From Schmidtea polychroa (Eukaryota): a stretch of 64,000 nt of DNA. Made by a program: the position numbers and the translations under genes. Every line of letters begins with the position of its first letter. The first letter of the stretch is position 1. Where the stretch lies: positions 142,724,001 to 142,788,000 of the forward strand of contig CM097885.1 of NCBI GenBank assembly GCA_044892525.1, in the 5' to 3' direction. This document shows, piece by piece, positions 51,526 to 64,000 of this stretch. Below the pieces are notes generated by a model. It was not told the DNA's origin. It saw only the letters and a list, made by a program, of their open reading frames with translations, and ran no database searches.

Positions 51526-52580
51526 CAATGAAAAAAATAATCAGTGATAAAATTGGAAAAAAAAGTTCTTATAATTTAAACAAATTCCTAAAACACCAAG
51601 TATTCAAAATCTAGTCACAAATTATGTCATATATTGATGTTTAAGGCTTGATTAAATTAAATTAAAAAAATCAGATTATGTGAATATCTTTATAATAGTA
51701 GACTTGATATTACTCAAAGATATAATAACAATTATTGAAGCGCGATTTGTTTTATTAAAATCTTAATTCAATATAAATCAGTTAAATTATATAATAAAAA
51801 AAATGTTTGTCAATTGTTATTTTCAGAGATTGTGTTTTAAAACTAGCGTGCAAATTTATGGTGCTGTGTATCTAATTGTGTGAAATAGATGTTGAACCCT
51901 TTATTAGGAAGGTTGAAAATATTTATACCACTATATTTCATTATAAAAATTAAGTGGTCAATATGCTTGCCATGGTTCATACACAAACAGTTGTTTTCTT
52001 AAACATTAGATAACATTATAAATGTCCATTCCTTGGAACCTAATTGAAGTTATTACATTTTTTAAGATATTTTTTCCAAGCTCCATAGACTGTTAATTAA
52101 ATTATATTCAGTTTTCCTTAAAAATACAAAATAAAATGTCTTGCCCTATAAAGGGTTACCAGTGATAAAATGGGTTTATTCAACGTAAGGTTATAAATTG
52201 AAATTAATATTTACATTTTAAGATTTCGACATATGATAAACATGTGGCTCAATTTAAAAATAAATACATAATGCCAGTAGTGTGGTTATATACCCAACCA
52301 AAACAGCCCCCCAACAAAAACATGCCTCCAAATCACTTAAGCTATTAGAAAAACAACCTAAAACTTATACTTTTATAGTATTTTAACCCTATATTTTGAA
52401 AACAACCACCCTTAATGACTCTAACTGTTTTAATCTTTAAAGCCTCAAACTCAAAAGCTTCAAACTAAAAAGAGAATAGAAAAGAAAATGGCATTATGAA
52501 AAAGTTAGAGGGCTATTTGATCTTTATCAGATTATTGATTTTAAATTATATAAATTAAAAAATAAATGAAAAATAGTAAA

Positions 52581-52659
52581 ACTGCTCTGAGGGGACAGTG
52601 GTATTTTTTTTTTTTTTTTTTTCACTGTCCCCTCAACAGTTTTTTTTTGATCCGGATCA
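52581..52659. repeat. GC-rich hairpin plus palindrome in the Polinton terminal region
   Basis: 13-bp perfect stem TGAGGGGACAGTG/CACTGTCCCCTCA with a GTA-T19 loop; palindrome TGATCCGGATCA flanked by T tracts. Confidence 0.9.
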
Positions 52660-53113
52660 TTTTTTTTTATTCAACCTCTTTCGTTTATCAAATCTCTTCC
52701 AATATACAAGCTGGCCAGGCTCATAATCAGAATCAATTCGATAATAGCAGCACACCTTATTATTCGCTTCTCGCTCGAATACGATTTCATCGGCGTTTTA
52801 AGTGTGCTGCTCGAAAGTACAAATGAATTCGAAAGCGAATCCGAAAGAGGTCCGAAAACAACCGAGAAATAAATGTGCACATTACCGGGATCGATCCGGG
52901 GGTGTTCGAAAGACAGGTGGCGATAATTACCGGTTCGCCACCATCACCCGTTTCAATATTTTTTTTTCATATTTATGTTTGAAAAATAATTAATTAATAA
53001 AAAAATAAAATAAAATAAAATAAATAAAATAAAATATACAAGTACTTTATAAATATAAGATACACACACTATTTTCAATATTATTTTCAAATTTTTAATA
53101 TTATTTTATGTTG

Positions 53114-53195
53114 AAAAAAAAACTAACCTCAGATGTGATTTGAACCGCTAGCATTTTGAACCACTGTGTCAGTCTAGCCCACTGCGCCATCAAGG
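53114..53195 (-). ncRNA. Putative Pol III-transcribed tRNA-like small RNA within the Polinton
   Basis: A box TGGCGCAGTGG (53189-53179), B box GGTTCAAATC (53146-53137), T9 terminator (53122-53114); 5'/3' ends are partly complementary. Confidence 0.6.
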
Positions 53196-53263
53196 TTTGG
53201 ATTTTTTGTCATTTTTTAAATTTTTATTATAAAAAATGAATAATATAAATCTTAAAAAATAAA

Positions 53264-61536: not shown

Positions 61537-62130
61537 TCATAGTTCGAAGGGCTTCAAGTATAATCCTTTACCATTTTTAGTTTTACAAAGGCATCCATTC
61601 TTTAAAGATTTACATATTTTTTTTAAATCTTCTTTATCTTTTGAAGATAAAGATTCAGATGTAGAAATTTGATTTTTTAAAAAATCATTTAAACCTCTAC
61701 CTTTATAAGGATCAAGATAGAGACCTTTGCCCTGAGACTTTTGCCGACTCCCCTCATATGGATTAAGATAGAGACCCTTTCCAACGGACACTCCCCCTTT
61801 AGCTTGCCCTACCTTCTTCATTGAATCGATTTCAGTTTGTAGTTTTTCTTTTTCTAGGTCTGTCTTTTGAGATTCTTTAGCTTTTTGAACTGTAGTTGCA
61901 ATTCCTCCAGCTATTCCAGCAGCACCTGATAAACCAGCAATGATTGCAGGTATTAAAGCAGCTAATGGAAGAATGCCACCTTCTTTAGCTTCGTGGAGCT
62001 TCGCTCTAACTTGTTCTTTTACATGTTTTCCAATAAAATATTTTTTATCATCAATTACTACTGATTTATTTTTATTTGAATTTATTAATTCTTGCAAAGA
62101 TTCTTCAGTAGAGGAACTCTTCGAGGTCAT
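61537..62130 (-). CDS. Polinton core / membrane-lytic precursor (PZ-like)
   Basis: GGILPLAALIPAIIAGLSGAAGIAGGIA amphipathic segment; GKGLYLxP repeated three times. Confidence 0.8.
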   Translation of the reverse strand: MTSKSSSTEESLQELINSNKNKSVVIDDKKYFIGKHVKEQVRAKLHEAKEGGILPLAALIPAIIAGLSGAAGIAGGIATTVQKAKESQKTDLEKEKLQTEIDSMKKVGQAKGGVSVGKGLYLNPYEGSRQKSQGKGLYLDPYKGRGLNDFLKNQISTSESLSSKDKEDLKKICKSLKNGCLCKTKNGKGLYLKPFEL

Positions 62131-62145
62131 TTTATAATAAACAAA

Positions 62146-62937
62146 ATGGATACTTGGAAACCAATTTTAAATAGACATAAGAGTAAATTTAATAATAAAG
62201 TATTTCCTGATAATTTTAGATTATTAATTGTTGGTTCTTCTGGATGTGGAAAGAATGTACTTGTTTTGAGAATGTTACTTGAAGATGATTTTTTAGATTA
62301 TAATAATTTAATCTTTTATTCTACAACCATAAATCAACCAGAATTACAACTTTTGAAATGTGGATTTGAAAATAAATTAACTAAAAAAGCAATAATTGAT
62401 ATTTTTAAAAATCAACATAGATGTCCTGAAGAAGTTTTTCAACCTTGTGATATGGTTGATTGGTATAAGGAAAAGATTTTAGAATCAGATATTAGTAATA
62501 AAAATGATTATATTTGTGAAGAAGGGCAGGAGGCAATTCAAGTTTTATTCTCTAATAAACCTGAAGATGTTTTACATTGTGATTTACTTCCTAAAGATAA
62601 AAAGAATCTAGTTATATTTGATGATGTTGTTAATATGAAAAATCAAGAGATTCAAAAGAGTTACTTTACACGAGGTCGACATAATAATTGTAATGTTATT
62701 TATATATCTCAAACATATTATGCTTTAGATAAAAATTCAATAAGAAATAATTCCAATTGTTTTATATTTTTTAAATTAGATCGCCGTGATAAGAATATGA
62801 TTTATAATGATTTATTTTCAAATGTTGAACCTGATAAGAATATGTTTGATATGTTTGTTGATAATCATTGGAAAGAAAAATATAATTATATTTATTTGGA
62901 TAGAGAAGAAGCTGAAATATGGAAAAGTTTGTTTTAG
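62146..62937 (+). CDS. A32/FtsK-HerA family DNA-packaging ATPase
   Basis: Walker A GSSGCGKN, Walker B LVIFDD, FTRGRHNN..IYISQ, SIRNN. ATG 62146 is preferred over the overlapping start at 62092. Confidence 0.93.
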   Translation: MDTWKPILNRHKSKFNNKVFPDNFRLLIVGSSGCGKNVLVLRMLLEDDFLDYNNLIFYSTTINQPELQLLKCGFENKLTKKAIIDIFKNQHRCPEEVFQPCDMVDWYKEKILESDISNKNDYICEEGQEAIQVLFSNKPEDVLHCDLLPKDKKNLVIFDDVVNMKNQEIQKSYFTRGRHNNCNVIYISQTYYALDKNSIRNNSNCFIFFKLDRRDKNMIYNDLFSNVEPDKNMFDMFVDNHWKEKYNYIYLDREEAEIWKSLF

Positions 62938-62948
62938 GGCTTGTCGAC

Positions 62949-64000
62949 TTAAAAATCTGTTTTCTGTAGTTCATTATTATAAAATCTACCTAATATTTTT
63001 TCATTATTTAAATCAAAGATGCTATATGTTATTGGAGTTGTATAATGTATTTTATTTATAATAAAAATTTCATTTGTCCATTTTGCTGTGAATCCTTTTT
63101 CAAATTTATTTTTATATTTAAATATTCTTACTCGGTCACCAATTTTAAACTTTGGTTTTTCAATAACATCATTTTCAATATTTACCACTTTAATGGTTTC
63201 AGGCTTCATGGAAGCATTTAAAGGTGTTAATTTTATAGAACTATGTACATCATTATTATATTCATTTACAATCTTTTGTAACAATTCATTGTTCCATTTT
63301 TGTTTTCCAATAGCAGTAAAATATTTCCACATTTTATTTTTTAATGTTCTGCTTTTCCTTCGTTTTCTGTTGAATATAATTTAATATCATTTTCATTTAA
63401 AAACTTTGTAAAAACTTTGTTATAAAATTCTGTTCCTTTATCACACCATAAATATTTTGGGATTCTTTGATTTTCTTCAAATATATTTTCAAATGCTTCT
63501 GTAATAGAATATCCTGTTTTATTTTCTAAACATCTTGCAAAAGCAAATCTTGTATATAAATCTATTACAGTTAAAATTATTTTATATTTTTCAGGGTCTG
63601 ATGATTTGGGCATAAAGACTAAATCTGCTGACCATGTTTGATCTTTTTCATGTACTTGAACTTTTAAATATTTTTTATTTTTTCTAAATTCATGGTGTAA
63701 TTCCTTTGCATATTTTATTTCTGATTCTGTTGGGGTTTGTAAACTAGTCTTGGCTGTACTCTCGAGGGATCTTTCAATCTCTGCTTGTTCGATAGTCTTT
63801 TTATAAGCAACATCTTTTGCTTTCCTAGGAAGTCTTGTACCCATGGTGATCGGACTGTGTCCTAAGCCTATGAAAATCTTACCTTTCATTGCTAATTTAA
63901 CTAGAGCTCTTTGAATCTTTTCTTGGGTTGATGGATTTTGGATACTATTTAAATCATGTATTAAATTCACATCTGCAACATGTCTATCTCTAAGATTTGT
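62949..64000 (-). pseudogene. int: PLA2-like domain fused to an rve integrase; frameshifted by a deletion that removes the catalytic Glu
   Basis: Frame open from the window edge: TNLRDRHVADVNLIHDL..EKIQRALVKLAMKGKIFIGLG, then WSADL, VIDLYTR, CDKGTEF. STENEGKA is joined out of frame to RTLKNKMWKYFT; KPKFKIGDRVRI C-terminal domain. Confidence 0.9.

Follow-up and report, generated by a model that had tools for sequence, protein, structure and literature searches.

A Polinton/Maverick element in Schmidtea polychroa, its very large resident family and an apparent replicase replacement read at its junction

Where a 64,000-nucleotide stretch of the Schmidtea polychroa genome (GCA_044892525.1, contig CM097885.1, positions 142,724,001 to 142,788,000 of the forward strand; hereafter the window) runs into a virus-like element at its right edge, the question arises whether that element is a lone insertion or one member of a resident family, and what such a family can reveal about how its replication genes are exchanged. 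A preliminary description, made from the letters of the window, had proposed a young Polinton/adintovirus-like element with an almost intact virion module, recently inserted in the germline from a probably undescribed lineage with possibly active or exogenous relatives, and had expected the major capsid gene and the right terminus beyond the window. The present analysis drew on the assembly G000 (781 Mb, 1,012 contigs; AT-rich, four of the contigs being large), in which the window is C1:142724001-142788000 and L003 is the stretch continuing to its right (adding 62000 to an L003 position gives the window-equivalent position). With good confidence, we regard the element as a complete, recently inserted Polinton/Maverick provirus that lacks a working integrase, and its family as very large, mobile in the recent past and subject to recombination.

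The boundaries of the element are exact. Its left end lies at 52276, where AGTAGT is preceded by AATGCC, and the expected right terminal inverted repeat (TIR) was found downstream, ending at L003:5347 and followed by a second AATGCC; the element measures 15,072 bp, of which 3,347 bp extend past the window. The two TIRs align over 946 columns at 97.8% identity, and four N stretches lie upstream of the element and none inside it. Polintons/Mavericks, or polintoviruses (PMC4028283), are defined in 10.1101/2023.08.22.554363 by TIRs of 100-1500 bp, target-site duplications of 5-8 bp and lengths of 13-25 kb, together with a protein-primed family B polymerase (pPolB) with intact catalytic motifs, an rve integrase, a single jelly-roll penton, a double jelly-roll major capsid protein (MCP) and a packaging ATPase. 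Each of these was found here, including TIRs of ~940 bp and the penton as a predicted fold; the adenovirus-like cysteine protease that also belongs to the set is a putative assignment, made from motifs and gene context with no library match.

The coding content extends this assignment. All eight uninterrupted open reading frames (ORFs) and the one broken gene described earlier were recovered (1444, 198, 336, 254, 154, 293, 197 and 263 aa for the intact ones), the pPolB, penton and ATPase identities were upheld by PF03175, a match to the mavirus penton fold and Pox_A32, respectively, and the MCP gene lies to the right as anticipated, matching PF21738 (Table 1). The pPolB comprises an N-terminal C2H2 finger, an OTU-like Cys287/His385 pair, an exonuclease, an HNH-like insert (about residues 607-626) and a polymerase domain, with all exonuclease and polymerase acids present and conserved in 46-50 of up to 50 aligned homologs. 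Of the 50 aligned homologs, all 35 with a residue at the first position of the pair have Cys287 and all 39 with a residue at the second have His385, a pair that we take, from its sequence, to be an OTU-like motif; the HNH-like insert is conserved in this alignment as well. The nearest database relatives share 49% and then 39% identity, followed by insect and mollusc proteins at 33-35%, and the weak PF03175 score (43.8 bits) leans towards the Beta adintovirus class.

The window copy is one member of a very large, young, recently mobile and freely recombining resident family. Copy counts, taken as exact-pattern matches over the whole assembly with a reversed-pattern control of 0 every time, came to 980 for a terminal 32-mer, 971 for a polymerase 5' motif and 2,050 for a capsid (MCP) 32-mer; given these counts and the older relatives in the same genome, the idea of a single recent insertion of a rare lineage had to be abandoned. 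A sample of 20 copies was taken from the first terminal matches on C1, selected by position and by both ends (13.7-15.5 kb apart). Exact identical 6-bp flanks occur in 17 of them, the median substitution distance of the sample from the window copy is 0.2-1.4% by gene, and full frames number 7 for PolB, 15 each for integrase and penton, 16 each for MCP and ATPase, and 19 for the protease. The earlier description of the element as a young Polinton/Maverick is upheld. Older window-type relatives in the same genome have polymerases at 89-97% aa identity, and older window-type subfamilies (L072-L081) show variant termini, pentons at 62-98% aa and several interchangeable virion modules.

Patterns of variation add a history to this family. 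The ratio of non-synonymous to synonymous polymorphism (pN/pS) is 0.28 for shared variants, 0.62 for private variants and 0.82 for variants of the window copy, a contrast that points to selection on the lineages that move, with decay beginning after insertion. Left and right TIRs differ by a median of 1.0% within a copy and 2.6% between copies, and 193 of 263 left-right differences are alleles seen in other copies, with just 5 in the outer 100 bp; these observations point to recombination among copies, the tips staying alike. Dating by left-right TIR divergence was rejected because most differences are shared alleles. Against diverged relatives, the corresponding substitution ratios (dN/dS; simple pairwise estimates that are not independent) are 0.15-0.23 for the MCP, 0.15-0.36 for the protease, 0.05-0.19 for the ATPase and 0.32-0.40 for PolB. 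Of the two kinds of relatives suggested earlier, active ones are supported indirectly, by near-identical dispersed copies, fresh target duplications and purifying selection on shared variants, and exogenous ones remain a conjecture.

A second family shares most of this genome. Because the capsid count was twice the polymerase count, 10 capsid loci without the polymerase motif were examined, and 8 proved to belong to a sister family (examples on G000:C1 are L052/L053, L060/L061 and L084-L091). From window-equivalent 57105 to about 66139 the sister matches the window copy at mostly 96-99%, with one stretch at 91%; its inner TIR is 90-92% identical, the outer ~250 bp of both ends are different, and its polymerase, 1,459 aa where whole, has 57-62% (about 58%) protein identity to the window pPolB. 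Four further copies picked by the sister terminus have the same structure, and in all 12 the sister's own polymerase C-terminus is followed by a window-type stub, with 89 nt between them in 9 and an internal change in 3. Identity steps at 57100 from about 59-66% to 96-98%, no microhomology was found at the polymerase junction at 57105, and the stub, ~99% identical to the window-type polymerase tail, covers the last 490 bp of the old gene. Genome-wide, exact matches number 783 for the junction 32-mer, 792 for the sister polymerase motif and 1,382 for the sister ends, again with 0 for every reversed pattern.

The direction of the change can be read from older copies. In older window-type relatives the tail is native to their own polymerase gene, at 88-99%, which identifies the window type as the displaced parent, and none of 40 window-type stretches has a sister tail. 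When the first 83 motifs of the sister polymerase were followed up, 79 proved to have the junction, 2 to lie in chimeras with a changed junction, 1 to be truncated and 1 to sit on another module without the stub, with no clear donor among them. Judged from these sequences, the sister family is most probably the product of one polarised replicase replacement in a window-type genome; ends and polymerases also reassort later. Sister-polymerase motifs near the element lie at C1:142813399 (~22 kb right) and C1:142602261 (174 kb left). Several related families carry an inverted copy of the ~24 bp at their tips, ~230-255 bp inside each end (L052:1294-1540, L064:1612-1867, L067:4642-4874 and L081:996-1247), which the window TIR lacks (best match 13/24).

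The account of the family's cycle draws on established Polinton biology (Krupovic 2014, Starrett 2021). In general, Polintons replicate from an excised linear copy by protein priming and integrate through the rve enzyme. Here, the protein-primed polymerase would copy the excised linear form from its AGTAGT ends, and the rve integrase would then insert it and create the 6-bp duplication. Copies would complement one another and recombine during joint replication. In one such event a foreign module, consisting of the 58%-identical pPolB and its own outer ~250-bp terminus, would have been fused at 57105 to a genome of the window type, with no homology at the join. The final 490 bp of the old polymerase gene would have stayed behind, the new terminus would have come to occupy both ends, and a single recombinant would have founded at least 783 copies.

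The penton call comes from a predicted structure: an AlphaFold model from a 113-sequence alignment (pLDDT 94.9, as against 36.9 for folding from the single sequence) has the mavirus virophage penton (PDB 6g41/6g42) as its best structural match (Foldseek E 1.4e-11, Z 13.9, rmsd 7.2 over 222 residues; 13-14% identity), a comparison that covers the penton alone. For the protease, the full catalytic set claimed earlier stands, with His, Asp, Gln and Cys motifs in the expected order and identical in 20/20 copies, and the protein is 35% identical to a protease-like ORF of a metagenomic relative; library searches gave no match above noise. The fibre-like and core labels are retained as putative, since the matches are weak (phage tail fibre at residues 35-95, E 2e-5; Adeno_PX, E 0.04, under the cut-off), and for the GasderminX and Cupiennin genes of the adintovirus Beta module, Pfam and PHROG searches returned no significant support in the 198-aa or the 293-aa ORF. 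No match to the MCP was obtained by phmmer against solved structures. The Walker A motif of the ATPase ends in GKN in the window copy (about 62233-62256) and in 19/20 copies and is canonical in none; among 62 database ATPases, 47 have Ser/Thr at this position. GKN recurs in all families read, and the eight nearest ATPases in the database, at 52-93% identity, have it too. Its interpretation as damage was rejected because these eight share it down to 52% identity, and the alignments mark it as an old, kept clade-wide trait.

The broken gene encodes the integrase and not a virion protein, which refines the earlier picture of an almost intact virion module: the virion genes are all open, and the window copy's own integrase, as its reading frame predicts, cannot be made. 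An rve domain (E 2e-12) is preceded by an N-terminal parvovirus-type PLA2 (E 2e-9), a fusion present in most full-length matches among 120 listed homologs. Near 63335-63341 the frame is broken by a short deletion, longer than 2 nt and not a multiple of three, that none of the 19 copies aligned there shares, and in 2/3 homologs examined the motif of the third catalytic acid lies at this site. An intact frame of 467-471 aa occurs in 15/20 other copies, a figure preferred to the 20/20 of a looser and too lenient test (both halves in one ORF); the PLA2 catalytic motifs are intact in 18-19/20. The fusion gave no match by phmmer against solved structures, and a metagenome scan with homolog P0004 returned a single distant locus, L051, where one ORF combines PLA2 with the beginning of the integrase and a protease lies adjacent. 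A GxG motif 30-65 residues past the PLA2 site is found in 50/61 homologs versus 1/330 control windows. Adenovirus-type proteases have a glycine-based cleavage specificity, and the conserved motif together with this specificity suggests, at sequence level, a packaged and protease-cut precursor. That the integrase is packaged as such a PLA2-integrase precursor and cut by the viral protease at GxG strikes us as an evenly balanced proposal; one gene would thereby supply a membrane-entry enzyme and the integrase.

Additionally, the family carries tRNA-like units. The unit in the TIR is present twice per copy in 20/20 copies and the first two units at the capsid end in 12-13/20; the A-box/B-box pattern, which was set up after looking at the sequence, occurs zero times in about 78 kb of control, and ARAGORN reported no tRNA in 8 sources.

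Because purifying selection acts on the capsid, protease and ATPase genes, particles are on balance a probable part of the cycle. Several observations weigh against the account given so far. The element is known here from sequence alone, so that particles, free linear DNA and transcripts are predictions; the polymerase is broken in 13/20 sampled copies, and all ten frames are open in 1/20 under a lenient criterion. The Walker A motif is without its usual Ser/Thr in all copies read, so that packaging activity is a prediction, and the GxG cleavage idea depends on a specificity carried over from adenovirus-type proteases in general. Constraint is weak on the penton (dN/dS 0.44-0.78) and on the fibre-like gene (0.41-0.96), a pattern that fits host-facing change and also relaxation. 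Neighbouring copies with a common target duplication were found as three pairs in the 20-copy sample, probably local duplications, and as three copies elsewhere, so part of the copy count reflects segmental duplication. As regards the swap, the one sister polymerase on another module without the stub leaves the donor ambiguous, and the first 100 window-type polymerase motifs lie beside the window terminus in 27 cases, beside the sister terminus in 4 and beside neither in 69; on these figures, strict coupling of polymerase and origin was rejected.

Among the alternatives, the one that survives best, which we nevertheless consider improbable, is a self-synthesising transposon that spreads inside cells only, its virion genes riding along or acting within one animal. 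The non-canonical Walker A in every copy read, the weakly constrained penton and fibre-like gene, and a scan of a viral contig collection that yielded no relative of the MCP all speak for it; the dN/dS of MCP, protease and ATPase, mostly below that of the polymerase, the sharing of GKN by the eight closest database ATPases down to 52% identity, which marks it as kept rather than decayed, and the intact PLA2 motifs speak against it. At the other extreme stands a live infectious polintovirus swarm of an animal germline in the act of replacing its replication module, in which an outside co-infecting donor would have given polymerase and origin in a homology-free join, the recombinant would have matched or outgrown its parent, and the virus would use a retrovirus-style packaged PLA2-integrase, its own small RNAs made by RNA polymerase III and a GKN motor; taken as a whole, this is a tentative and rather unlikely scenario.

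A recent crossing of the family by infection into a second host species, represented by runs labelled organism B, is also unlikely. Three runs (X2-X4) of two organism-B samples contain 0.89-0.90 of the element words. In run X2, a 2,589-bp contig differs from the element at 10 sites and a 1,399-bp contig matches it throughout, and among the listed pieces of X2 no long one falls on the host flank, a region that the organism-A run X5 does cover. However, the organism-B runs come from the same study as the best organism-A run, and a very high-copy repeat is visible in slight cross-contamination where a single-copy flank is not. Three seemingly private X2 alleles form a haplotype present in 34 of the first 100 G000 matches, and for these three the notion of alleles private to organism B was rejected. 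Cross-contamination is the likelier source of the organism-B signal. Three metagenome runs contain 0.38-0.48 of the element words, and no RNA run is among those listed with them.

The reverse swap, with the sister family ancestral and the stub an old gene later absorbed by the window-type polymerase, has little probability. In its favour, the stub is an ATG-started in-frame ORF of 184 aa in 8/12 copies and 179 aa in one; yet it is shortened to 87 aa in 3/12, diverged window-type relatives hold the tail within their polymerase at 88-99%, the stub is about 99% identical to the window subfamily, and sister polymerases are 98-100% alike, against 89-97% aa for the window type. For the stub ORF at about L060:5597-6150, the in-frame ATG lies upstream of the stub and comes after a TATAAA. 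Still less credible is a lone recent germline insertion of an outside virus: nearly all frames are open, the target duplication is exact and about 31 private substitutions occur in 10.7 kb, all as it would predict, but the same genome contains dispersed copies by the hundreds to thousands, along with older relatives at graded distances; repeated reinfection from outside is possible. An assembly artefact, in which misjoining of a collapsed repeat produced the copies and chimeras, as the common flanks of some adjacent copies might hint, has next to no credibility: exact target duplications of many different sequences occur on chromosome-scale contigs, the junction recurs unchanged at 783 places, and a DNA run of another study covers element and flank.

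The remaining features concern the element's margins and its surroundings. A hairpin-like inverted repeat with a long T run at its centre lies within the TIR (window 52580-52650). The 84-aa ORF ahead of the right TIR differs among copies and is missing in most of the first eight sister copies, and a family search with it gave no significant match. Outside the element, the coding sequences of other transposable elements are decayed, as had been described, the longest stop-free frame in 1-52000 being 271 aa; Gypsy-type long terminal repeat retrotransposon fragments (protease, RT-like, integrase) lie at window 21058-24380 and 29549-30695. A short repeat just left of the element (51421-51570) has very high depth in run X5, with a related 30-mer at 46930; an 11-bp tandem array occupies 31651-32024 and a degenerate 51-bp AT-rich repeat region 24500-26200. 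The right flank contains, at L003:8265-8516, an 83-aa helix-turn-helix fragment (HTH_32, E 9e-5) that is probably a DNA-transposon remnant.

Table 1. Features of the element and its target site (window positions unless L003 is given).
Feature	Position	Strand	Support or remark
Left target-site duplication AATGCC	52270..52275	.	second copy L003:5348-5353, past window end
In-window portion of element	52276..64000	.	remainder in L003
Left TIR, ~940 bp, begins AGTAGT	52276..53218	+	97.8% to right TIR
tRNA-like A-box/B-box unit within left TIR (left coordinate approximate)	53136..53189	-	mirrored in right TIR
Protein-primed PolB, 1444 aa	53264..57598	+	PF03175 E 2e-11, 43.8 bits, above cut-off
pPolB 3' part, the stub surviving at 99% identity in the chimeric sister family	57105..57598	+	junction = 57105
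ORF, 198 aa, hydrophobic middle	57693..58289	-	dN/dS 0.17-0.29
Putative fibre-like protein, 336 aa, fast evolving	58298..59308	-	weak N-terminal tail-fibre match, followed by a coiled-coil-like stretch
Penton, single jelly-roll minor capsid protein, 254 aa	59333..60097	-	predicted fold
Putative adenovirus-type maturation cysteine protease, 154 aa	60146..60610	-	motif order and gene context
Conserved ORF, 293 aa, one GxG[LI] motif	60633..61514	-	ORF and motif
Putative core precursor, 197 aa	61537..62130	-	weak adenovirus pX match, residues 50-77; four GxG[LI] motifs
A32-type packaging ATPase, 263 aa	62146..62937	+	Pox_A32 E 1e-8, above cut-off; Walker A ends GKN
Broken PLA2-integrase gene, C-terminal piece, 127 aa	62949..63332	-	ORF
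PLA2-integrase gene, N-terminal piece, 331 aa	63341..64000, start 336 bp past window (to L003:2336)	-	PLA2 residues 66-147, GxG 157-159, rve core 229-321
Double jelly-roll major capsid gene, 428 aa, open	L003:2366-3652	-	PF21738 E 7e-27
Two tRNA-like units	L003:3716-4016	+	Rfam tRNA 26.7 bits vs gathering 29
84-aa ORF ahead of right TIR	L003:4185-4439	+	ORF only
Third tRNA-like unit of capsid end	L003:4440-4490	.	A-box/B-box pattern
Right TIR	about L003:4411-5347	.	ends L003:5347, then AATGCC

Planarian Polintons are listed in Repbase. Compared with known systems, the window copy is an ordinary, well-kept Polinton, and the family is unusual in its size, its youth and its readable replicase replacement. 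With Polintons/Mavericks it shares pPolB, rve integrase, a putative protease, packaging ATPase, double jelly-roll MCP, penton, a length of 13-25 kb, long TIRs and a duplication of 5-8 bp; it differs in the PLA2 fused to the integrase, the GKN Walker A, the tRNA-like units at the capsid end and the very high copy number, the highest pPolB2 counts in 10.1101/2023.08.22.554363 being 388 and 259, in trichomonads. Polintons are PIWI targets in a planarian, according to PMC8532177. With adintoviruses (Alpha and Beta) the family shares an OTU-like domain in PolB, a putative adenain-type protease, hexon, penton, FtsK-type ATPase, integrase, PLA2 and a pX-like segment. In PMC8502044, module exchange between adintovirus lineages is proposed and PLA2 marks Alpha adintovirus virion modules, with pX at the C-terminus (PLA2X); in contrast, the integrase here begins with the PLA2, and the pX-like segment belongs to a gene of its own. 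No flatworm term occurs in one supplement file of that paper.

The swap itself has precedents. In Caenorhabditis Polintons, pPolB1 and pPolB2, 16% identical, are exchanged with TIRs conserved (10.1101/2023.08.22.554363), and there as here closely similar elements in one genome differ in their polymerase. Unlike that case, identity between the two polymerases is 58% here, the replacement took in the outer terminus, the junction can be recognised by a stub of the displaced gene, and copies of the recombinant number at least 783. In 10.64898/2026.10.13.758929, reassortment of replicase and morphogenic modules is described in Polisuviricotina, recent turnover is called rare, tandem integration, mobile replicases or homing are proposed, and the cases compared here are endogenous elements (some from anemones) or environmental contigs, often with two whole replicases. 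The process is the same; the present case differs in being nucleotide-resolved, polarised and amplified. Polintons and polymerase swaps are already known. Within the parts of the literature compared, no case combines a junction read to the nucleotide, a remnant of the displaced gene beside it, a terminus replaced along with the polymerase and amplification of the recombinant. A search of openly accessible literature gave, in the texts compared, no description of the PLA2-integrase fusion, the tRNA-like units or the present family.

For the biology of these elements, the case touches on two open questions, namely whether animal Polintons make virions and how replicases get exchanged, and finding actively reproducing polintoviruses is named an experimental challenge in PMC4028283. 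At ~2,000 capsid genes, one young family would make up some 4% of the assembly at most, an upper bound that supposes every copy to be full length. The PLA2-integrase precursor, if true, would explain how the integrase arrives in a new nucleus, and the family offers, within one genome, a replacement event whose junction, direction and outcome appear directly readable.

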